From Octopus vulgaris (lineage: Eukaryota): DNA of 64,000 bases. The translations under genes and the position numbers were made by a program. The notes beneath the pieces were generated by a model. The model saw nothing but the letters and a program-made list of their open reading frames with translations. It did not search any database and had not been told where the DNA came from. Positions 3,127-61,578 of the stretch are shown in pieces. Each line of letters starts with the position of its first letter. Within the stretch, counting starts at the first letter, position 1. The DNA lies in the NCBI GenBank assembly GCA_951406725.2, contig OX597842.1:29574001-29638000 (forward strand). Reading direction: 5' to 3'.

Positions 3127-3760
3127 TGTCAGGCTTTTATTTGTCATGAAATCAAAAAGATTTAAATGGGCTTTATATAATAAGCTCCTTACGTAGGTGC
3201 GCGCGCCCCTGTATATGTGTGTGTGTGTACGTGCACGTGTGTGTAAGTACATACATACATGCACAGAGTTTTTCAAAAAATTATGAAAAGCTTATGTCGT
3301 ACTAAATGAACTGAATTACATTTTGAAAGGATAAATTGTAAACAACATTCAAGGTTACAGAAATTCGGGTCATAGTTTGGGTCATGGTGATAGTGGTGGT
3401 CCTTTTTGCAAGGAAAGGTCAGTTTTGGAGTAGTTGTAGCTGTTTAGCCCCTTTTCAGCCCAGATCTTTGAAAACCTAGAATCAAAGACACTCCACCCGT
3501 GACATACTCTTTGGATTAACTTTTCACACAATCCCACCAGTGGTTGAAAATATTAAGTAGCAATAATATACTGTTCCTGTTTATCTCATCTAATTCTCTT
3601 TCTCAGGTTTTGAGGCCTTGTGTAGGCTATGGGCACTGCCTTACCTTCTTTCACTAATTAATTAGCATGCTTTATGCACAAATACTTTATATGCATATAT
3701 ATGTGCATTAGTCTATGATTGTTACATGCACATACTGCATGCACATGTATATGTTTATTT
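1592..3760 (+). repeat. ~370-bp direct duplication (1592-1970 / 3378-3760)
   Basis: GATAGTGGTGGTCC...GTTACATGCACATACTGCATG nearly identical in both copies. Confidence 0.9.
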
Positions 3761-7433: not shown

Positions 7434-8607
7434 ATTGGTGAATTGAAGAAATGGAGCTGAACGCAGATTGAACAGAAATCGTTTTATTTCATTCTACACG
7501 TGTTTCAAAAGGCACAAATTACCAAAATCCGATTGAATAATGGGACCATATTGTGTCTTTCTCTTCAGGAAGAAAATAGGAAATCCGTTGGAAAAACAAA
7601 AACAGAACAGAGGCGGAGCAAAAACAAATCGAACTATGCTCCTAAGAGCCCATGGCGAAACTGTTTATCAGTGTATGTTGAGAACCGGTGGCTGAAGAAT
7701 TTAACGGGTCAGGCATCGGTCAATCATGTGGGTGAGGGTGTGTGGGTGTTCTTTGTGACCGAGAATAAAGTTCTGACTATTTAAGGAATATTGGATGTTT
7801 TATAAGGGGCGAGAAAAATCTACTTAGAGACGTGTGTGTGTGTATACTGTTCTATATATGTGTGTGTTGGCGTAGGGGTAGAAAACATTTTTTGTGTACG
7901 TGTGTGCGTTTGATCGTTCGGCTGTCAGTGGCTACTGCCGCGAGAACCGTTGGGTGGCAGAAAAAAATATATATATATTATGTTTTATGTGTGTGTGTGT
8001 TCATCTAAGCCTGCCTTGTCAAGGAAACCCCCCGCTGTGAAAAAACCAAGCCCCGTTTGTCTTACAGGAGTAATTCCCCTGGAGTAAATCGCGGCAGTAG
8101 CCACTGACAGCCGAACGATCAAACGCACACACGTACACAAAAAATGTTTTCTACCCCTACGCCAACACACACATATATAGAACAGTATACACACACACAC
8201 GTCTCTAAGTAGATTTTTCTCGCCCCTTATAAAACATCCAATATTCCTTAAATAGTCAGAACTTTATTCTCGGTCACAAAGAACACCCACACACCCTCAC
8301 CCACATGATTGACCGATGCCTGACCCGTTAAATTCTTCAGCCACCGGTTCTCAACATACACTGATAAACAGTTTCGCCATGGGCTCTTAGGAGCATAGTT
8401 CGATTTGTTTTTGCTCCGCCTCTGTTCTGTTTTTGTTTTTCCAACGGATTTCCTATTTTCTTCCTGAAGAGAAAGACACAATATGGTCCCATTATTCAAT
8501 CGGATTTTGGTAATTTGTGCCTTTTGAAACACGTGTAGAATGAAATAAAACGATTTCTGTTCAATCTGCGTTCAGCTCCATTTCTTCAATTCACCAATAA
8601 TGTTTTA
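7425..8607. repeat. 519-bp inverted repeat (7425-7943 / 8089-8607) with 145-bp spacer; Penelope-like pLTR
   Basis: Identical 94-aa ORF on both strands (7500-7784 +, 8248-8532 -); each arm carries a hammerhead motif. Confidence 0.9.
8455..8547 (+). ncRNA. Minimal type I hammerhead ribozyme motif (Penelope-like); mirror copy on - strand at 7485-7577
   Basis: TTC-CTGAAGA(8464)-stem II (GAAAGACACAA/TTGTGCCTTTT)-GAAAC-ACGT-GTA-GAA; palindromic stem III ACACGTGT. Confidence 0.7.
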
Positions 8608-8828: not shown

Positions 8829-10205
8829 GGGTGGAGTCTAGCTTGAACCTGCCTGAGATTTGAAACCAGATCTACTGGCTTGTTGCTTGTCGAAACAAGA
8901 GGGAAATCTTCCACCTAGATGATTGATGAGGAAGCACTCCACACCCTAGGACCTGTATTGGTCAAGGAAAGGTCAGTCCTTTGTTTAAGGTTTGATCTAC
9001 ATTACTGACTATAGCCTTTATAACAAAGAGAATCTATCTCTTCGTTTGATGTATCAACTGTGACCAAGGAGCAACAAGGGCTCTTAGGGTTAGGGTTAGG
9101 GTTAGGGTTACGTGTCAGCCAGGCTTTTGCATCAGCCTTAACCAAGAGCAGCACTTCCCTTCGCTCAACATGCAAAGAGAGGCTTTCGGCCGCGAGAAAG
9201 GCGATGCCACCTTTATCTTTTCTTCCTTTCTAGTCAGCACCATGACTACCTTACTCTTTCCCTCTCTACAGACAGACAACCTTTTTCTACGTATGAACTA
9301 CTAACTAGCGAGTCATCCTTGTTGTCACTATCACTAGAATTGCTACTGTCTCTGTAACAACCTGTTGGGCAAACGAATAGATATATGTAAATAACATTTC
9401 TTCCTTCTTGGACTTAAATCTTCGATGTTCAGTGGTTACTCCGATGTGAGAACCTTGAAGTGTTAAATCTATACGCTACATTTAGTTGTGGGTTACCTCA
9501 TATCGATTGGTATGGCACATCACATCTAGCCTACTACATTTGGTGACCCCGTCGAAGAATCACAGCCTTCACATCACCCGGCAATGAATTGGAACTGGAA
9601 AACCCCTGCGATTAATCGGCACATAATGTCTCTCTCTGAACGCAGCCCAGCAGCGTACACATCCACTGTCGAAATGGCATTCCAGATGGCAATTACATTG
9701 AGGATTCCCCCATTTTGGACGCACGACCCTGCATTATGGTTTCACCATATAGAGGCCCAATTTTCATCCAACCGAATAGTGATCAATGTGTCTCGACTTA
9801 CGCATGTGATCAATTCCCTTTCACCAGAGATCATGAATGTGTTCCGTGATCTCATTATGGCACCACCTGGTTCTGTGTCATATGACACTTTCAAAACCAC
9901 CCTAATCAAAAGAACTTCAGAGACCCAACAAAAGCGACTCCACCAGCTCCTTACATCGGAAGAATTGGGTGACAGAACACCTTCCCAGCTTCTACGATGA
10001 ATAAAGCTGCATCTTGGAGATGAGATCCTCCCTGAAAAGATTTTTAAGTAGCTTTTTCTCTTGCGTCTGCTTTCCAACACATAGGTGGTCCTCTCTTCCA
10101 CATGAGAATCCACTACCATTGAGGAACTGGCGGAGCTAGCTGGCAAAATAGCCGAGGTTCCACATAGATATTCAACAGTATCAACGGTGACACCAGCCAT
10201 CCTCA
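8826..10205 (+). mobile_element. Ty3/Gypsy remnant: 5' LTR (~8826-9538), tRNA-Trp-type PBS, truncated gag
   Basis: TG...CA LTR followed by TGGTGACCCCG at 9541; gag motif IPPFW..DP.LWF..IEAQF and LGDRTPSQLL; stops downstream. Confidence 0.8.
9084..9110 (+). repeat. Interstitial telomeric repeat (TTAGGG)4
   Basis: TTAGGGTTAGGGTTAGGGTTAGGGTTA. Confidence 0.9.
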
Positions 10206-18432: not shown

Positions 18433-20913
18433 ATATATATATGTGTGTGTGTCTGTGGGTACAGGTATATGAACCTCATTTATTTACTCCTCTCCAAATT
18501 CATTCCACCTGTTTATTAATCTGATTCTTTCTCTTTTTTTGAAATTTTTCATTTTTGCGATGCCCCCCCCCCCATCCACTTGACGCCATCTTTAATGTCT
18601 TTATTGTTTATCTTTTTTAGGTCACTCAGCGAAATAATAAAGGTTGGACACCTCTCCATCTTGCCTCGTATTATGGACACACAGACACAGCTAAACTTCT
18701 CCTACAACAAGATGGCGCTGATGTGAGGGTGGTGGACAACGCTGGTTGGACACCTCTACATCATGCCTCGTATAATGGACACACAGACACAGCTAAACTT
18801 CTCCTACAACAAGATGGCACTGATGTGAGGGTGGTGGACAACGCTGGTTGGACACCTCTACATCATGCCTCGTATAATGGACACACAGACACAGCTAAAC
18901 TTCTCCTACAACAAGATGGCACTGATGTGAGGGTGGTGGACAACGCTGGTTGGACACCTCTACATCATGCCTCGTATAATGGACACACAGACACAGCTAA
19001 ACTTCTCCTACAACAAGATGGCACTGATGTGAGGGTGGTGACCAAATATGGTTCGACACCTCTCCATCTTGCCTGTCAGAATGGACACACAGACACAGCT
19101 AAACTTCTCCTACAACAAGATGGCACTGATGTGAGGGTGGTGACCAAATATGGTTGGACACCTCTACATCTTGCCTGTCAGAATGGACACACAGACACAG
19201 CTAAACTTCTCCTACAACAAGATGGCACTGATGTGAGGGTGGTGACCAAATATGGTTCGACACCTCTCCATCTTGCCTCACGTAATGGACACACAGACAC
19301 AGCTAAACTTCTCCTACAACAAGATGGCACTGATGTGAGGGTGGTGACCAAAGCTGGTTGGACACCTCTCCATCTTGCCTCTAATCAAGGACACACAGAC
19401 ACAGCTAAACTTCTCCTACAACAAATGGCACTGATGTGAGGGTGGTGACCAACGATGGTTGCACACCTCTCCATCTTGCCTGTCAGAATGGACACACAGA
19501 CACAGCTAAACTTCTCCTACAACAAAATGGCATCGATGCCAATAAAGTGGACAATGATGGTGACACTCCTCTCCATCTGGCAGTTCAAAAGTAAGTCCCC
19601 AATGGATTTGGATTATCCAAATCTGTTTCTTTAATGTTTTCAATAACGTTTGTTTTCTTGTTTTGAGTCATTCATGTCATAATCCCACCATGGGACGTCG
19701 TGCTTCAACTCTCTCTCTCACACTCTAATGACACTGTAACCTACTTCATTAATTAATCATCATAATTATTATTGTTGCTGTTGTTACCTGACTAGATTCT
19801 TTACTTCATCTCATCCTTCGTTACCTCAACGTTACAAGTTCAAATCTTTCCTTTTCTTCTTTTCATTCCATATAAAACACCTCACCCCCTCTCTCTTGTA
19901 ATTTTCCTCTTTCCTCTGACCCTGGGCTAAATACAGAATCATTCCCTTACAGTGTTTAGTTTGATCTGTTTATGTTCCAAGTTCAAATCCTGCCAGAGTA
20001 TTTATTAACAACCTGGAGTGAAAATCTGTACCAGTAATATCCAGGGGTTCATTTAATAAATTGTCCTCCCTCTTTTGTCTTGTTTTTGTGTCTGATTGCT
20101 GTTGGGCAAAATACCTTGTGGTATTTATTTACCACACTTTATGTTCAGAGTTCAAATCCTGCTGAGGTCACCTTGTCCTTCCATCTTTGCTAGGCTAATA
20201 AAATACAATACCAGTCATGTACTGGGGTCCTTATAATCCACATTAATGCCTCTCCCCATCCTAAATTTCATGGCTATATAACAGTTGTTCATCATACCAT
20301 ATATAGATTGCCGTGTTTACTCAGGTGTGTATATATATCGTTGATCTATAATGTAGAGAGTATATCGAATATACGAGGGGGTACCCAAAAGTGGCCGGAA
20401 ACGCTTCTGTAGGGCAAGGCCATTGAAGTTCAGGCTTCTGCTGCTGGAAGCCACTTGATGCGATACTCAGGCATCAGCCTACCAAGCGGCATCTTTGAGG
20501 ATGGTGCTGTTACCATGTGGTGCATCTTTGTTTTGTAGGGCTTCTCCCCTGTTCGAGTTTTGCAATGGCTGAAATGAAGGATCAGCTTGCTTCCATGAAA
20601 TTCTGTTTTCTGCTGGAGAAAACTGCAGCCAAAACAGTTGTCATGCTTCAAACAGTTTACGAGGACACTGCCATGATGCCACGAGCAAAACACAAGATCA
20701 CGAGTGGTTTTCATGCTTTTCAAATGGTCACTTGTCACTTGAGGTCCAACCTCATTCAGGGCAGTTCCAGCACTGCTACAAATAGTGGGAAACATGTCTG
20801 GGTCGATGCATTGCTTCAAATGGGGACTACTTTGACGGTGATAATAGTGTTAATACGTAAAACTAAGCAAAGAAAATAATATTGCAAAATTCTGGGTCCT
20901 TCTTGGTCCCCAC

Positions 20914-27800: not shown

Positions 27801-30800
27801 ATGTTGTTGTGTTATATTTATATATACAATACTCTTCCATAAGTATTTCTTTTGTTATGGCCAGTTGGCTTTATCAAGCCTGTTGTAAAGATAGGTTCTT
27901 GTTGGTTTGTTGCGTTCTGTTATTTGTGATACTTATTCCATTATATTTCCTACATTTGACATGATTTGTTTATCTACAATATATATTTGTGTAATATTCT
28001 ACTGATCGTTTTATATTTCATCATTTGCAGTGCTGCAGAGAGCTCCAACTGGACATGGATAGGAGGCTCTCTGGAATAGTAGTTTTGAGTTACCTTGCCA
28101 GCCAAGGAGCCAGCTTATACCATCATAATAATAAGAAAGTGACTCCATTGGACTACATAGAAAATCAACATTTGAAAGAAAAATTAAAAACATTTTTACA
28201 ATCACTGTAAGTATTCACTGGCAACGACAAGATAAACCAGGACATTTTCTCTTTTGTATATAATCATGTTTATATGTTTATTTAGTTTGAATTCTCCCAA
28301 TGTATTATTCCGTCATTAGTGTCTTGACTCAAGACAACAATAATGATTTCCAATTCTGGCACAAGGCCAGCAAGGTCAGGGAGGGGATAAGTCAATTACA
28401 ACAGCCCCAGTTTTCAACTGGTACTTATTTTATCAACAGCAAGGTAGAGTCAACCACAGCTGAATTTGAACTCAGCATGTAAAAGCAGACGAAATGCCAG
28501 AAAGCATTTTGCTCCGTGTGCTAATGATTCTGCCAGCTTGCAGCCTTAAGACCACACAACAATAATAAGAACAATAAACAGAAAATACAGTTGTTAGTGG
28601 ATCAAACGAAAAACACGATTTTGATGACATTCACATGATTGCTTGTGTTGACAGATATACCTCACCATCCACCCCTGACTATTTTAGAGTTTGGTGACCT
28701 CCATGAAAATGTAGTACTAAATAATAAAGTGAATGAACACATTTTGAAATTGCTATTTAGAAGTAAATAGGATTTATCTGTCTACCAACAATTTTTTTCT
28801 CTCTCTCTTCTCTGACTCAATCAGTTGTCATGTACGCTTTCATGTGAAAATAACCTAAAACACACACTAACAATGTGTATGTCATCATCATCATCATCAT
28901 CATCATTTAACGTCTGTTGTCCATACTGGCATGGATTGGACTGTTTGACTGGGATGGCATGTTGGAAGGTTGCACCTTAGTCAGCCTTTGATATTTTCAG
29001 CCCACCCTTGTATGTGTATGTTAATGTATACACACAAATCTGCTTGTATGTAATTGTTTACAGAAGAATTTACGATGTACTCTTGCTGGTTACTGTTGTG
29101 CCCCTTAATATTCTGTACTCTAAACATGTCCACAACGAAATATTTTATTATAAATGAATGTTAATGATGGGATGTGTTAATATTTTGTTCCACAGGTGTT
29201 GGTTTTGTCAAGAGAAAAAGGCTACTGTCACACTCCATCCATGTCAACATACTGTTATTTGTCAGAATTGCTGTTCTCAAATGACATTTAAGCAATGCCC
29301 CATATGTCGACAACACATACTCCGGAAAAGTGGATTTGGTAAGAACATTCTTTCTTGATCTGTCTGTTGTCTCATTAACTTTCTGGTATGGAATAATGCA
29401 TTTCATATTGTAGTGGAGACATGCAACTCCTTGTTTGTAACTATATATTATTAACACTTGTTATAATGTTTGCCATCCTTTTAGACATTTTATACTCACA
29501 CTCGTTAGTTTTTAGATGTGATTAATGCTAAAAGAGACATTGTTTTCTGACTCTTTCACCTTTTGGCTTTACTTTTGAGTTGATTCGTTTTAATTCAAAC
29601 ATGAAGCCTGGTCATTGCTCCAAGGTGGTATCAGAAAGTTCACGGACTAGTTCTGTAGCATGCCAACAGATGGCAGCACACCGTTGCGTGCACAGTGAGA
29701 GCTAGCAATGACTTTCATGAGGCGGTGTACTGGGTGACACCACTGCGTTTACTTCAAAAGTTGTGAAATTTGTGCTTTTGTGGTCATTTGTAGGCTGTAG
29801 TCTGCAATTTTCTAATGGGCAGGAACAAATAACCAATGTGAAATTTTGCGTTAAACTTGTCCAGCAAAGACATAAGAAAGAAACAACAAAACTAAGAGAA
29901 AAAGAGTGTTATGAAGTGATAACTAAGTGAGAGAATTTCAGAATTGTTAGATTAGTATATAGGATGTCTTAAGAGAAAGATGAGATTTAGAAAGGTTTGC
30001 CTATTTTGTTGTGGTTCTAAATATTGAACTATTATATAGTAACAGCTTAGAAAGTGTTGACCGAAAGCATAGTGGTCACCAATTGACTATTGATGATATG
30101 AATGCCTTACAAAAATGGAATATAGATTATTAAAAGAGACAAAGAAATTTTACTATGAAGTATAAAACTTTGAAATGCTTATTTCAGTGTGTCCAAAGTT
30201 TGAAGAGAAAGCAGTCCAGGCGGTTGTAGAGTCTGTTGGTAAGTATAAAATAACTGTAATTGATTTCTATAAATTTTACCTTCACCTGAAATATATTATT
30301 TGTGTGAATGACTGTGAACAGGTTCCATTCTTAATTTCCAATTCTTATTTCAGTGTGTCCAAAGTCTGAAGAGAAAGCAGTCCAGGCAGTTGTAGAGTCT
30401 GTTGGTAAGTATAAAATAACTGTAATTGATTTCTATAAATTTTACCTTCACCTGAAATTTATTATTTGTGTGAATGACTGAGAACAGGTTCCATTCTTAA
30501 TTTCCAATTCTTATTTCAGTGTGTCCAAAGTCTGAAGAGAAAGCGGTCCAGACGGTTGCAGAATCTTTTGGTGAGTATAAAATAACTGTTACTGATTTCT
30601 ATAAATTTTACCTTCACCTGAAATATATTATTTGTGTGAATGACTGAGAACAGGTTCCATTCTTAATTTCCAATTCTTATTTCAGTGTGTCCAAAGTCTG
30701 AAGAGAAAGCGGTCCAGACGGTTGCAGAATCTTTTGGTGAGTATAAAATAACTGTTACTGATTTCTATAAATTTTACCTTCACCTGAAATATATTATTTG

Positions 30801-33800
30801 TGTGAATGACTGAGAACAGGTTCCATTCTTAATTTCCAATTCTTATTTCAGTGTGTCCAAAGTCTGAAGAGAAAGCGGTCCAGACGGTTGCAGAATCTTT
30901 TGGTGAGTATAAAATAACTGTTACTGATTTCTATAAATTTTACCTTCACCTGAAAGATATTATTTGTGTGAATGACTGAGAACAGGTTCCATTCTTAATT
31001 TCCAATTCTTATTTCAGTGTGTCCAAAGTCTGAAGAGAAAGCGGTCCAGACGGTTGCAGAATCTTTTGGTGAGTATAAAATAACTGTAACTGATTTCTAT
31101 AAATTTTACCTTCACCTGAAATATATTATTTGTGTGAATGACTGAGAACAAGTTCCATTCTTACATTTCTTTCAAATGGATAGCGATAAAAGTAATTCTA
31201 TTCACTACCTACAAATGCAAGAATATACAATAAAGGGATTTTTATCGAAATATGGAATCATGAGACATAGGAAAAAGGTCCCTCACGATAAGGAAAATAT
31301 AGAAAAAAAGATAAAATATAAATCCTGCAGCGATTCTCTCCCCATAATGAGACACATTCACTTTTCTCTCATCTCATTGTTTTCTATATCACCACCTTGA
31401 TTATATATTCTTGAATATCATTTCTTATATACCATTTCAGATATTTTTCCTTTGCAACAATTGGTGTATGAACATTTGTGTTTCATTTAAGATGTTTTGT
31501 GCAAGTATACAGTTTTAGGATACTTGTTATCACTTTCTGTTTTACCTGTGTAGAACTAATCATTGCTCATCAGGAAAGGAAACTATTTCATTAAGGAGTC
31601 TTTAGATATTTCCTGAATCAGATGAAATTCTGGTGAACTGTGAGTTGCATAGTTTAAAATTAAAGATTAAAAGCAGCAACGTTTGACAAAGATAACAGGT
31701 GTGACATGAGTTTGTGTCAAGGTCGTTGATGACCAGCTTGGTTGACATCAGAATTAAGCAAAAGAAGAGGGGAATGTTGATTAGTGAAGTCCAGTGGTGA
31801 GGGGACAATGCCATGTCATTGGTTTAGCATGGATATAAGAGAGAAGAAAGATAAAAGGTGTTAACATGTGATCATTAAATAAGATGATTGCAACATTGTT
31901 AGATTAAGTAGGCTGTCTTAATAGAAAAAGGAGGCTTAGGAAGGTCAGTCTATTTTATTATGGGCCTAAATATTGAGCCATTATATAGGACCACGGTAGA
32001 AAGTATAAAACTATCAACCAAACCTTTAGTGGTCAGCAGTTGTCCATTGATGATAGGAATGTCTTACAATAATAAAATATAAACCATTAACAGAGATCGG
32101 GAAATTGTGCTATGAAGTGTAAAATTTGGAAATATTTATTTCAGATTCTGTAATGGTAGAGGAGAAGCATCTTCATTGGGTGTCCAGAAGCTTGGCAGGT
32201 AAATGGCAGGAACTTGGTGAGTATAAAATACCCAATTAATTTCTATAAATTTTGCTTTCAGCTAAGCTTTTGTTTGTTTGAATGACTGAGAACCGGTTCC
32301 ATTCCTAATTTCCAATTGAAAGTTTAGCTATAAAGTAAAGCTATCACTGAAATTTCATAAAATATCTACGGACGTCAGCACGGTTGTAAAATGAATAAAT
32401 TAGAAGGTCCAGTAGAGTTAATACTATCGTTTGTAAAAGGGGACTCGAAAATATTGTCATTTAAGAGTAAACAGGTGAATTAATGACAATGTTTTTGCTT
32501 GTTTACACTTTTAGTAATTTTACTGGTAGGTTGAGGCAGATATCTCCCTTAATCTGGCAGAATTAAGGGGAAAGGGTTCCAGATGTGCCATCATGTTTTC
32601 TCTTGGGTGAAGAGGACCACATTATCAAGTGTAACCTTTTTAAAATGAGAGTGTGCATTGTGTGGGACATGTTGTCATCTCTCCCCTGGCCAGTCTGTTT
32701 TTCTATATTTATTGTAATTCTTTAGTCCCAGGTCAACATATATTTCCTGTCTCTATAGAAGACAGGCCCCATTGTCGATTGTGTTCATGGCTGGATTGAA
32801 CTCAGCATTGTAAGTTAATGAAACACTCATTTATATTAGAAAAAAAGAATCTCAACAGAAAATTCAAACTCAACTCAATTTTGTTCTCAATTGAAATCAT
32901 TTCACTCTCCTTTACATTACAAATGTCACATGGAAAGGCATGAACATCACAATATCCCATTTCCCCTTGTCTGACAGTTTAACAACATAAAATATCATTT
33001 ATACTATTATTTACAGCAATGCCCCTCTTATTTACAGCAATGTCTTCTACCTCCCTATGGTACCTATATACATCTAGATAGACTGCAGCATAGAGAAATG
33101 TCTTTACAAGTACTTTTGAGCTATACTGGGGACTAGACTTGACTCAAGAGATCATGATAATATCCCCTGAGTCAGCTGATATAAATCATCATCATCATCA
33201 TTTGACATCCATTTTCCATGCTGGTATGAGTTGGATGGTTTGACTGAAGTCTGGAGAGCCAATGGCTGCACCAGGCTCCAATCTGATCTGGCAGTGTTTC
33301 TACAGCTGGATGCCCTTCTTAGTGCCAAACGCTCCGAGTGAGTAGTGGGTGCTTTTTATGTGCCGCCAGCATGGAAGTCAGTCAGGTGGTCCTGGCATCA
33401 GTCATGTTTGGATGGTCCTTTTTACGTGCCACCAGCACATGGAGTCAGTCAGATCACACTGGCATTCACCACATTCAGATGATGGCTTTCATGTGCCACC
33501 AGAACGGGGGCTAGTCAGGGGGCACTGGCCACAGCTGCAATTTTGGTTTTACTTGACTCAACAGGTCTTCTCAAGCATATCATATCACCCAATGCATCGA
33601 GGGTGCTCTTAAATGGGCCGGACATGCAACACTGGCATTGGCCATGGCTACGATCTCATTTTAGTTGCCGGGTTTTCTCAATCACAGCATATTTCTCAAA
33701 TCTTGGTCTCCTGTCATTGCCCCTGTGAGGCCCAATGTTCGAAGGCCATGCTTCATCATCTCATCCCATGTCTTCCTGGATATACCTCTTCCACAGGTTC

Positions 33801-38868: not shown

Positions 38869-38976
38869 GCTTAATAATAAACTTGAAATTAATTTGTTCT
38901 AAACGCCAGCTTAATAGTAAATTTAATAACAATAATAATAATAATAATAGTAGTAGTAGTAGTAGTAGTAGTAGTA

Positions 38977-41600
38977 AGGTCTGTACCATCAAAAGAAGAA
39001 GTGCAGGGATTTTGGAATAAAATTTGGGCAGAAGAAAAACCACACAACGAAAGGGGCCCCTGGATTGACAGAATATCTACAGAACTGGACCCCTTAGAAG
39101 AGCAAAAGTGGGAGGGTGTCAAGGTAGAAGATATAAGTTCTGCTCTCAGGAGGTCAAGCAAATGGAAGTCTCCAGGAAAGGATAAAATTCCTAACTTCTG
39201 GTTGAATGTCTTCCCAGAGAGCCATGAACTGCTAACAGAACTTTACAATGATGTTTTGCAACACCCTAGTAGGATGCCTCCTTTTTTTCATTCCAAAAAG
39301 TGAAGAAACAAATGAACCAAAAACCTATAGACCCATAACCTGCTTAACAACTATGTATAAAACGCTAACATCTGTCCTGACGGAATATACTTATAGTTTT
39401 TTAACAGACAGCAGCATATTCCCTAATGAACAGAAAGGATGTAAACGTGGATCCTACAGCTGTAAAGATCAACTACTCATCAATAAGATGATCTTAGAAG
39501 ATTGTCACAAACGACACAAAAACTTATCAATAGCCTGGATAGGCTATAAAAAGGCTTTTGATAGCCTACCACATAGCTGGATTAGGAAATGCCTGGAAAT
39601 GTATAAGATAGCACCTACTCTGCGAAACTTTTTGACTGTAAGTATGAGATCATGGAGAACCACACTAACTCTGGACAGTGACAATGAATCCCTAAATGCC
39701 TGTGATGTAAAAATTTCATGTGGCATTTTCCAGGGTGACTCACTGTCACCACTCCTCTTTTGTTTAGCCTTAATACTTCTCTCAAAACTGCTCAATGACG
39801 CGCAGTACGGGTATAAAATGTTTGATAAAAATATAAATCATTTCATTTACATGGATGATTTAAAGCTTTTTGCAAAAAATGACCAACAACTCAAGGGCAT
39901 ACTAGCGATAGTCAAACAATTCAGTGACGACATCAGAATGCAATTCGGCCTCGATAAATGTGCAAAAGCTATCTTTATCGAAGGAAAAATGACAGAAACA
40001 TCTAACGTTAACCTTGACCAGCAGAATGTCATAAAAGAACTAGACACAGCGGAGAGCTACAAGTACCTAGGGGTAATTGAAAGGAACGGAATAAGGCATT
40101 CAGAGATGAAGGAAAGGATCAGGAGAGAATGTTATCGAAGAGTGAGAGCAATACTCAAGACAGAGCTGAATGCAAGAAACAGGATCGAAGTGATCAATGC
40201 ATTAGCCATACCAGTCGTGACTTACAGTTTCAATATCGTTAACTGGTCAATTACTGAAATATGTCAGCTCGACAGAAAAATACGAATACTGTTGGCAATG
40301 CATAAAATGCACCACCCTAAGGCAGATACAGAACGACTTTATCTGCCTAGAAAAGAGGGAGGCCGTGGTCTTTTACAACTGGTAATAACAATGAAGATTG
40401 CTACAATTGGCCTAGACACCTACCTGAAAATGTCTGAGGACTGGATGTTAAAACTTGTCTCAAAACATGAAAACAAGAAAGCATCATACTCAGTAACAAA
40501 ACAGGCAAAGGAATATCTAAGTGAATTCCGAATACAACAAATTTTGGAATTAGAGATAGACATACAAGAAACAAGCACAGAAAAAGCTAGGCGCATGAAA
40601 ACCCGTGCCAAAACTGCGGCCTTAGATATTCTGAATAATAAATGGCAAGAAAAACCTCTCTATGGCAAACACCCAAAGAGAGCGAATAATGCAGATATTG
40701 ACAAACCCCTGACCCATTAATGGCTAATGGCCTCTGGCTTAAAATCTGAAACAGAAGGGTTTATCATAGCAGCTCAAGATCAATGCCTACCAACAAGAAA
40801 CTACCAGGCCAACATATTAAAGAACGGCAGTAGCCCAACATGTCGTGTATGCCGATAACAAAATGAAACCATTGATCATGTTGTCTCCAAATACAGTCTT
40901 CTAGCGCCTACAGAGTACCTCAACAGGCATGATAGAGCTGCACAATATATTCACTGGGTAATTTGCAAAAACCTGGATTTGCCCCATGAAAAAAACTGGT
41001 GGGAACACAATCCACCTCCAGTGCTTGAAAATGATCACATCTCACTCCTCTGGAACTTCACCATTCAAACTGACAGAAATATAGATGCAAATAGGCCAGA
41101 CATCCTATTGAAAGACTTCAGACAAAGAACATGCCTCCTCATTGATATGACTGTCCCAAACGATATAAACGTATCTGTCAAGACCTACCAAAATCTGAGC
41201 AAATATAAAGATCTTGAAATAGAAATCAGCAAAATGTGGAACCTGAAGACTAAAACAATTACCTGTTGTCATAGGTGCCCTGGGAATGATAGCGAAAGGG
41301 GCTGACTGCTTCCTAACTAAGATACCAGGAAACCCCAAAATGGCAGAAATTCAAAAGATAGTGCTCATGGGAACTGCTCATATCCTACGCAAAATACTCT
41401 CTATGTAATCCCAAGGTTTAAAACAAACTTTTTAAAAAATTTATGTATTAGACATTCACTAGTACAACACCAAAAAAAAACAACCAAATATATGGCACAC
41501 TAGGCATAACAACAACGTGAACTTCCAACCTGTTGTCTCTTGAGGTCTCTGGGTGAGACTTGGAGCCAACTCGTACAAACATAAAGCAAAAGTCAAACAT
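38977..41600 (+). mobile_element. 5'-truncated R4/Dong-like non-LTR retrotransposon (RT, zinc knuckle, restriction-like endonuclease)
   Basis: 490-aa ORF with YRPITCL, GIFQGDSLSP and YMDD; CRVC..ETIDHVV, RHD and RPDI motifs; few stops and frameshifts; flanked by (TAA)n on both sides. Confidence 0.9.
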
Positions 41601-49031: not shown

Positions 49032-50134
49032 TGCCCTGATGCAGTACCAGGAAGTGGCTCTCATGGCTTCTGATCTTAACTGATTGGAAGTGTTATCATG
49101 TACATTGTTTTGTCTTGGTATAAAAGATGGGTTTTACAGCAAATATTCTGCTCAATACCACAGATTTGCTTGTCAGTTGTTTGACCTTAACCAGTTGAGC
49201 ATGTCCCTTAGTGGCTGACGATATGTGCATCTCTGATCACGAGCAGAAGTAGTGGGGGAGCATCATTAGCCATATGTTGAGAGGGATTCTTTGGGGTTTG
49301 AATGCCCTGATGCAGTACCAGACAGTAGCTCTCATGGCTTCTGATCTTAACTGATTGGAAGTGTTATCATGTACAATGTTTTGTCTTGGTATAAAAGATG
49401 GGTTTTACAGCAAATATTCTGCTCAATACCACAGATTTGCTTGTCAGTTGTTTGACCATAACCAGTTGAGCATGTCCCTTAGTGGCTGACGATATGTGCA
49501 TCTCTGATCACGAGCAGAAGTAGTGGGGAGCATCATAGCCATGTGTTGAAAGGAATTCTTTGGGGTTTGAATGCCCTGATGCAGTACCAGACAGTGGCTC
49601 TCATGGCTTCTGATCTTAACTGATTGGAAGTGTTATCATGTACATTGTTTTGTCTTGGTATAAAAGATGGGTTTTACAGCAAATATTCTGCTCAATACCA
49701 CAGATTTGCTTGTCAGTTGTTTGACCTTAACCAGTTGAGCATGTCCCTTAGTGGCTGACGATATGTGCATCTTTGATCACGAGTAGAAGTAGTGGGGGAG
49801 CATCATAGCCGTGTGATGAGAGGAATTCTTAGAGGTTTGGATAATTCACCTTTGGAAACATGGGTAGTTCGTTCAGCATCCTTAATCCTTATTTAGGGAC
49901 TTTTTCAGTGGGATGGGCTACTTGACCAGAAGAAAATTCTAACTGGGCCCTACCTGCAAGGTCATGTGCTGTTTATCTTGATATGAGATCACCATGTCGC
50001 GCACATATGGTTGTGATGCATGTGCCTGGTGTACCCTTATCAGACAGGTAGTCATGATGGGTATACTGGGCTTCGTATCTTTTGCTCCTGTGACACTTTG
50101 ATGGCACGCACTGCTCTTTCACTGAATGATGATG

Positions 50135-60239: not shown

Positions 60240-61578
60240 TCTGTGAATAGCCACATGTTTATGCATGTGGCTTTTTCGAGAGAATCATTTGCCACACATG
60301 TCACACTGACATGGCTACTCTCATGTAGGGATTCGTTCATGTAGATTCAAGATAGGTCTATGAGAGAATGCTTTAACACAGACACGACCATTACATAGGT
60401 TGTGTCTGGGATGAAGATTTTCGTGTGTAGTTACAACACCATTTGCAAAAAATGAATTACAACAACTAATGCAAGGTTATGGCTTCTCTACTCCATGTGT
60501 ATGCGTGTGTCTGTTCAACTGATGCCTTTGAGAAAATGACTCACCACAGATCTCACAATGACAAGGTTTCTCACCAATATGAAGGCGATTGTGATTAGTC
60601 AAGTGAGCGCTTTGAGAGAATGATTTACCACAGATATCACAATGATAAGGTTTCTCTCCTGTATGTGTAAGTTTGTGCCGAGTCAAATTACTATTACAAG
60701 GGAATAATACCACAGATATTACAATGATAGGGTTTCTCTCCTGTATGAATGCGATTATGAGTAACCAAATCTCTATTATGAGAGAATGATTTACCACAGA
60801 TCTCACAATGGTATGGCTTCTCACCAGTATGAATGCGATTGTGAGTAACCAAATTACTATTACGAGAGAATGATTTACCACAGATATCACAGCGATATGG
60901 TCTCTCTCCTGTATGAGTAAGTCTGTGCCTAGTCAAATGACTATTATGAGAGAATGATTTACCACAGATATCACAGTGATATGGTTTCTCTCCTGTATGT
61001 GTACGTATGTGATCAGTCAAGTTAGTGCTTACAGAGAATGATTTACCACAGATATCACAATGATATGGTTTCTCACCAGTATGAATGCGATTGTGAGTAA
61101 CCAAATTACTATTACGAGAGAATGATTTACCACAGATCTCACACTGATATGGCTTCTCTCCCGTATGTGTACATTTGTGTCTAACAATGTCACCACTGTA
61201 AGAAAATGATTTTCCACAGATATTACAGTGATATGGCTTTTTCTCTTTATCAAGGTTTTCTGATTCATTTAAATTATTCATTTCGAGAGAATTACTTATC
61301 ATACACTTCACAATGATAAAGTGTTTTTCATTTCCATGAATGCATTTCTGTTCACTTTTGTCACTTCATTCAGATAACAATTTAATGCAATGTTTCTTCC
61401 ATACATTCCAGAGAAAGAAAAATATTTCGCTGTTCCTTGTTATAGACTGTATTTATATACAGAGGTAGACTTATTCATGAATGCTCCTTATAAATATACT
61501 GTCTTCCTTTAGGTGATGAGAATATCAAAGACACTTCTGAATGGAGAGATTTCCTTCACGTCAACATGTTGTGATATT
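60240..61578 (-). pseudogene. C2H2 zinc-finger tandem-array gene, disrupted
   Basis: ORFs 60694-61311 and 60477-60890 give 9 fingers with TGEKPY-type linkers; 2-nt deletion in finger 7 near 60705; stop at 60477; further decayed finger downstream (CDMCGK*FSRKSHMHKHVAIH); candidate acceptor TTTCAG ending at 61579. Confidence 0.8.

Follow-up and report, generated by a model that had tools for sequence, protein, structure and literature searches.

Multivalent clients of LC8 (DYNLL), among them ASCIZ, Nup159, GKAP and Chica, carry K-x-[TV]-Q-T-type motifs arrayed in tandem along a disordered segment (PMC10046861, PMC3078936). Among tandem exon duplications, the H2d helix exon of COE/EBF is a single-helix exon that was duplicated and retained in the transcript (PMC2394523), while the Mind bomb proteins MIB1 and MIB2 have in common a terminal ankyrin region and a C3HC4 RING. 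Both tandem exon duplication (PMC2394523) and multivalent LC8 clients (PMC10046861) are already known. Here we describe a gene of Octopus vulgaris that resembles each of these systems in part. It lies on the plus strand of a 64,000-nt stretch (the window; assembly GCA_951406725.2, contig OX597842.1, positions 29,574,001 to 29,638,000; contig C29 of genome G000 in our numbering), and its ankyrin exons, a MIB-like terminal ankyrin exon and a RING exon are followed by six 51-nt exons (mini-exons), death-domain exon A and death-domain exon B, in that order. We interpret the mini-exons as spliced, frame-preserving descendants of exon A that probably serve as tandem LC8 sites in a predicted disordered linker between RING and death domain, where the number of sites would tune dimerisation.

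Like the segments of known LC8 clients, the octopus linker contains motifs in tandem. As the period is 17 residues, 8-residue motifs stand about 9 residues apart, a distance reported to give homogeneous ASCIZ complexes (PMC10046861). Unlike in those clients, each candidate octopus site is one exon, can be traced to the helix of a folded domain and varies in number among paralogs and annotated isoforms. The array has the marks of tandem duplicated exons, namely homologous exons and flanks, the same phase and splicing; however, whereas copies in duplications such as that of COE/EBF stay homologous helices or substitutable exons, the octopus copy lost the core residues of the fold, gained a linear motif and was then amplified repeatedly. 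Relatives of the protein are named MIB1/MIB2-like, and the MIB1 ankyrin structure 8v0e matches residues 3-124 of family member P0004. The octopus family differs from MIB1/MIB2 in having one RING and a C-terminal death domain, and no Pfam MIB N-terminal domains occur in the five proteins scanned. Mind bomb proper was therefore rejected as an identity, as Pfam detects in these five neither its N-terminal substrate-binding domains nor its two or three RINGs, and the family is regarded as MIB-derived.

The way in which short linear motifs arise is seldom easy to follow; in this family the exon that served as donor, intermediates of full length, trimmed forms and the products of repeated amplification all survive, and it can be measured how constraint moved off the helix core and onto a motif anchor. 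In the literature searched, which left most subscription journals outside, no description of the family, of LC8 sites in it or of an LC8 motif that arose out of a domain exon was found, and the excerpts of the preprint 10.1101/2023.09.15.557927 contain no passage on motif origin via exon duplication.

The duplicated block and the descent of the mini-exons

A single local alignment (29897-30343 against 31849-32317; blastn E 2e-64) joins the surroundings of the array to those of exon A. The introns upstream of mini-exon 1 and of exon A are identical at 220 of 288 positions (76%), and their score of 669 is reached by 0 of 1000 dinucleotide shuffles (maximum 179) and 0 of 492 control segments of the window (maximum 137); over the spans in which an earlier note on this DNA had proposed the homology (29940-30187 and 31895-32144), 189 of 242 positions agree. 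The downstream introns are identical at 86 of 101 positions (85%; score 329; 0 of 1000 shuffles, maximum 113; 0 of 1153 controls, maximum 108), and for the last repeat the homology extends out to about 31206 against 32348. Both flank matches of the earlier note thus withstand shuffled controls, and its statement that the mini-exon is exactly 21 nt shorter is borne out by the six AG..GT exons of 51 nt and the 72 nt of exon A. The original duplicated block comprises about 500 bp (31849-32348), and the 166-bp unit is a later sub-repeat with introns of 115 nt, in which copies 3-6 differ by 0-3 nt and copies 1-2 differ from them by 10-12 nt.

Dispersal of the flank as a repeat at unrelated loci was considered and rejected: among 112 flank matches reaching an acceptor (from fetched loci, overlapping loci being counted twice), 103 run into an AG..GT exon of 51, 57 or 72 nt and thus adjoin an exon of the series, two precede AG..GT exons measuring 50 and 53 nt, and seven precede copies with an altered splice site or a remnant. 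Nine of the exon lengths were set by hand, and the flank searches scored the best 40 of 313 and the best 40 of 326 candidates.

Within the exon itself, the match to exon A of the same gene is weak. Free local alignment gives a score of 45 against 40.6 +/- 7.7, which 263 of 1000 shuffles reach and which is not significant, and alignment in fixed register gives 19/44 nt for the mini-exon (1169 of 100000 shuffles) and 20/44 for the QT copies (353 of 100000). The register proposed by the earlier note is nevertheless secured, because a paralogous exon A (TPKLEEKCLQDVAK) matches the window mini-exon at 27/44 nt with 0 of 100000 shuffles as good; exon A of this TPKLEEK type is nearer in sequence to the mini-exon than the window's own exon A. 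In paralogs, where the earlier note suggested seeking intermediates, copies have lengths of 72, 78, 57, 51, 48 and 36 nt. Full-length copies outside the death domain measure 72 nt (SQMFEDKGVQTD..., SPKFADKGVQTD..., SLNLEENRSH...) or 78 nt (APKFEDRCVQTE...), and since intermediates of these lengths already bear the new motif (DKGVQTD, DRCVQTE), divergence need not postdate trimming. Different QT exons have been amplified separately, as a 78-nt exon present four times in P0153, an NRTF-type exon present three times in P0154 and the 166-bp array of the window.

The tree of the flanks rejects the window mini-exon and the window exon A as sisters (approximately unbiased (AU) test, p 0.0017). At depth the flank trees are star-like; monophyly of exon A (AU p 0.18) and of the 51-nt exons (p 0.29) is neither rejected nor shown, so that the trees supply no root and are compatible with either order of trimming and divergence. 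These comparisons support descent of the mini-exons from death-domain exon A, with later trimming and amplification; the source was an ancestral exon A, and the duplication is old rather than local. We infer that copying ran from exon A to the mini-exons, since PF00531 begins in exon A and the invariant ancient death-domain core is found there. The earlier proposal that helix 1 was duplicated, trimmed, diverged and amplified therefore holds for origin, trimming and amplification; the neighbouring exon as donor does not, and the order of its steps is not required. An intact second exon A is found in P0009 of O. bimaculoides, and the annotated isoforms P0009/P0007 represent one gene with two intact exon A copies, either of which is joined to exon B in the annotation; helix 1 may be swapped between them.

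Splicing of the mini-exons is observed in family transcripts. In four runs from four studies, presumed to be RNA although none is recorded as such, and aligned at 88% likeness, GT..AG joints connect the terminal ankyrin exon to the RING exon (4/4 runs), RING to mini-exon (1/4), mini-exon to mini-exon (3/4), mini-exon to exon A (3/4, with a variant joint in two) and exon A to exon B (4/4); these joints are family-level and not assignable to the window copy. All recurrent length classes (36, 48, 51, 57, 72 and 78 nt) preserve the frame.

Conservation of the copies and candidate LC8 sites

The residues L, V, L and W, spaced as in a helix core, are invariant in 11/11 lineages of exon A. Among 14 lineages of QT-type copies, L-1 of this core has become V, T or S, V+2 is kept in 5/14, and L+6 and W+10 are deleted or replaced. 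The positions retained there are K-3 (11/14), V-1 (12/14), Q0 (13/14) and T+1 (12/14), each encoded by several synonymous codons, while -2 and +2 vary and -2 is free. Across lineages, the proportions of nonsynonymous and synonymous differences (pN and pS) are 0.19 and 0.74 at the anchor against 0.42 and 0.42 at the other codons; adding two non-QT lineages, with the window represented by its VQA copy, gives an anchor pN of 0.29 and pS of 0.70. The pattern [VTI]Q[TV] is retained in 9/16 lineages, where neutral evolution would keep it in 2.1 on average (P 0.0065, from the 6350 runs without stops among 20000 simulated), and [TVI]-Q-[TV] with K or R at -3 occurs in 4/6 window copies and 9/16 lineages. 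In O. bimaculoides P0286, examined after the idea of LC8 had arisen, K-x-V-Q-T stands in 4/5 otherwise divergent units, and P0177 and P0165 have it in one of two units each. Over related, hence not independent, proteins, [TVI]Q[TV] appears 30 times in 3518 residues after the RING and 0 times in 6657 residues up to it. The codon comparison thus shows selective retention of K-x-[VT]-Q-T across the old lineages of copies, with constraint moved from the helix core to the anchor. Of the two roles that the earlier note had offered for the copies, a new one is supported by this loss of core and retention of motif.

The LC8 consensus is [D/S]K-x-[T/V/I]-Q-[T/V]-[D/E], with EDKATQTL as the site of Bmf (PMC3078936), and the pattern of the mini-exon lineages fits it at up to 7/7 positions, its free position falling where the consensus also leaves one free. 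A DKGVQT peptide is tabulated as an LC8 binder (PMC6607443, Table 2); at such sites +2 favours P, D or E and tolerates hydrophobic residues poorly, and weak motifs can be rescued by adjacent sites (PMC6607443). Favourable flanks (D/S at -4; D/E/P at +2) are present in DKGVQTD and DRCVQTE of the 72/78-nt copies and absent from EEKAVQTV of the window. In our judgement, LC8 binding is quite probable for the older exons of the family and slightly doubtful for the window copy, whose Val at +2 would make its motifs weak sites dependent on avidity. The genome has an LC8 gene 93-99% identical to most listed matches; an intronless LC8 coding sequence of 89 aa lies at L072:1489-1758 (contig C25 of G000).

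The alignment-based model of the paralog P0008 contains folded ANK, RING and death domains, the true exon A forming helix 1, and an unstructured linker whose residues 206-260 have no helix and a pLDDT (predicted local distance difference test) below 50, consistent with disorder. A single-sequence fold of P0003 was uninformative (mean pLDDT 39.7). Complex prediction with four LC8 chains and two 34-residue double-repeat chains, run without alignment and with peptides outside the calibration of the tool, scored 0.27 and 0.24 against a mark of 0.34 and counts neither for nor against binding, and a search of the ESM Atlas gave no usable match.

A probable course of events would begin, early in the family, with duplication of the block of about 500 bp that holds exon A together with its splice signals. 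From a PKLEEKCLQD-like ancestor, two or three substitutions would have yielded the LC8-type anchor, in-frame deletions would have taken away the unused 3' part of the exon, and the unit would have been re-amplified several times, in the window as the 166-bp unit. LC8 duplexes its clients (PMC12057147), and LC8 dimers could bind two chains in register along the linker, bringing RINGs and death domains together; exon number, exon skipping and anchor loss would then tune LC8 valency. MIB1 dimerises via a coiled coil and RING3, and its activity is higher in the dimer, although dimerisation is not absolutely required (10.1101/2024.03.01.582834), and a MIB-derived protein with one RING could benefit from an external dimeriser. 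If LC8 binds, the family would offer a natural series for how site number and strength control dimerisation of a death-domain-coupled E3 ligase. It is a more doubtful proposition that octopuses set LC8 valency, and with it the dimerisation of predicted ligases across a family of well over 100 ANK-RING-death-domain members, by exon number, alternative splicing and Q-to-K switches, a helix having become a linear motif with all evolutionary intermediates preserved in one genome.

Evidence against LC8 sites and alternative explanations

Several observations weigh against tandem LC8 sites. The window's own subfamily comprises 99 units in 27 loci, each locus with 1 to 8 copies; 76 units measure 51 nt, 17 measure 36 nt and 6 are out of frame. 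VQT is kept in 23 of the 76 51-nt copies and K replaces Q in 28, the 17 36-nt forms have no anchor, any [VTI]QT occurs in 11 of the 27 loci, and pN (0.16; anchor 0.20) is not below pS (0.14). In the window, two of the six copies read VQA and the other four have V at +2; a peptide containing SIQTVV is a tabulated LC8 non-binder, and binding fails in many peptides that bear the anchor (PMC6607443). A QT exon is absent from many members of the family, the splice joints described above belong to the family and are not assignable to this copy, the lineage representatives were picked by hand, and the anchor columns were named after the data had been seen. Furthermore, the frameshift in the upstream ankyrin exon puts the assembled gene out of frame before the RING, and the window copy may therefore never translate the array. 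That exon is an 8.7-copy 102-bp repeat with a copy number that differs among paralogs. Reads at the frameshift site add G behind 19423 in 3/4 runs and A behind 19422 in one, with 96-130 contigs per run fitting two places, which accords with an assembly error and with a real lesion alike; the corresponding exons of three close paralogs (lengths in Table 1) are all in frame overall, and that of L096 has compensating frameshifts.

Conservation of the motif relative to its flanks is thus present across old lineages and species and absent within the window subfamily, which is losing or toggling the anchor. Replacement of Q by K recurs in separate exon lineages (KAVKT, DRRVKT, DRCVKK, KEIKT; L033-L055 arrays; P0011, P0139, P0148), which could reflect selected loss of sites or mutation bias. 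In the L033-L055 arrays, 36 of the 99 subfamily units start with C-x-x-C (CPKC, CPRC), and such copies in tandem might be metal-binding or disulfide-forming. In three loci (L064:9822, L075:6096, L085:4295), the frame has stayed open in a 51-nt KGVQT copy whose GT donor has become AT.

The copies might instead be near-neutral spacers. As symmetric phase-1 exons that inherited strong splice sites, they would be tolerated, would vary in length through unequal crossing-over and would fix only the distance between RING and death domain. The equality of pN and pS within the window subfamily and, across lineages, outside the anchor agrees with this, as do the range of 1 to 8 copies per locus, the persistence of anchor-less 36-nt, 48-nt and 72-nt copies and the several copies with broken splice sites or frameshifts (6/99 not a multiple of 3). 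However, both across old lineages and in O. bimaculoides the anchor columns are kept far more often than neutrality predicts, and frame preservation in all recurrent length classes shows translation, though not a specific function. As an account of the whole family we consider spacers unlikely; for the window subfamily they may be the answer even if older lineages bind LC8.

It is also conceivable, and in our view very unlikely, that K-x-V-Q-T is a motif for a different partner or modifying enzyme, or that the C-x-x-C variants are a new metal-binding repeat, as their place at the start of over a third of the subfamily copies (36/99) would suggest. Conservation of a motif does not identify its partner, and the variants VQM and SQT deviate from the LC8 optimum; set against this is the match to as many as all seven consensus positions with the free position correctly placed. 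To our knowledge, K-x-V-Q-T does not resemble TRAF-binding or SUMO motifs by eye. Decoy or competing copies of death-domain helix 1, the other role raised by the earlier note, are hardly tenable. Descent from helix 1, the annotated joining of the intact second exon A of P0009/P0007 to exon B, by which helix swapping may exist at an early stage, and the low-confidence single-sequence model, in which the repeats are helices, would accord with that role; yet the four core residues that exon A keeps without exception have been altered or lost in the copies, and the alignment-based model has the true exon A as helix 1 and the copies without a helix. Tandem LC8 sites in a linker remain the explanation we prefer.

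The locus, its gene family and other features of the window

Table 1. Coordinates within the window of the exons, introns and repeats discussed.
Feature	Position	Strand	Basis or remark
Tandem ankyrin exon of the gene (970 nt; assembled with a 1-nt frameshift near 19423-19426)	18622..19591	+	Close paralogs 869, 461, 866 nt
MIB-like terminal ankyrin-region exon	28031..28206	+	Splice joint in 4/4 runs
RING (C3HC4) exon	29196..29338	+	Pfam; splice joints
Intron flank 5' of mini-exon 1, homologous to 31849-32144	29897..30187	+	220/288 identical, 0/1000 shuffles
166-bp tandem array, 6.0 copies, 97% matches	30174..31169	+	Unit of acceptor, 51-nt exon and first ~104 nt of the old downstream intron
Mini-exon 1, phase 1-1, VCPKFEEKAVQAVVESV (VQA, degenerate anchor)	30188..30238	+	Splice joints in family
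Mini-exon 2 (KAVQAV, degenerate anchor)	30354..30404	+	
Mini-exon 3 (EEKAVQTV, LC8-type K-x-V-Q-T motif)	30520..30570	+	
Mini-exon 4, same sequence as mini-exon 3	30686..30736	+	
Mini-exon 5, same sequence as mini-exon 3	30852..30902	+	
Mini-exon 6, same sequence as mini-exon 3	31018..31068	+	
Intron after last mini-exon, homologous to 32217-32348; 3' end of duplicated block	31069..31206	+	
Intron flank 5' of death-domain exon A	31849..32144	+	Local alignment
Exon A of the death domain (72 nt; phase 1-1), with helix 1 and the conserved Trp	32145..32216	+	PF00531 start in P0003/P0004; helix 269-277 in P0008 model
Intron after exon A, homologous to repeat intron	32217..32348	+	
Death-domain exon B with stop codon	35752..35969	+	Joint to exon A in 4/4 runs

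The O. vulgaris protein P0001 matches exons of the window gene at 100%, and RING, mini-exons and exon A are skipped in its model. The gene is one of a large ANK-RING-death-domain family in Octopus, to which 135 exon B matches among 150 scored candidates point. The flank query gave 27 near-full matches on C29, the window's own included, and one on C27, all at least 91% identical, with diverged copies also on C31 and C10 (best 40 of 313 candidates scored). The named relatives from two family searches and 10 looked-up representatives are all from O. vulgaris, O. sinensis or O. bimaculoides, and Pfam assigns ANK, one RING and Death to the five family proteins scanned. Annotated isoforms differ by whole units (five in P0286, four in P0172 and three in P0287), and 14 O. 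sinensis gene models have 0-2 units; these counts come from gene models and may include mapping artefacts. Clusters resembling exon B, a few kb apart and many with stops, lie on contig C1 of G000 at about 102.71-102.73 Mb and 216.93-216.97 Mb.

Elsewhere in the window, identical open reading frames (ORFs) on opposite strands at about 7460-8570 indicate that a long and nearly perfect inverted repeat lies between (AT)n tracts; a (TTAGGG)4.5 tract follows at 9084-9110, and then an ORF at 9530-10000 that we take to be gag-like. ORFs at 38893-41305 (+) resemble, by eye, a fragmented non-long terminal repeat (non-LTR) retrotransposon reverse transcriptase, and a C2H2 zinc-finger array with an 84-bp repeat lies at 60477-61365 (-). 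A three-copy 269-bp tandem repeat (96%) occupies 49032-49839, and a 384-bp direct duplication (95%) relates 1588-1971 to 3375-3758.

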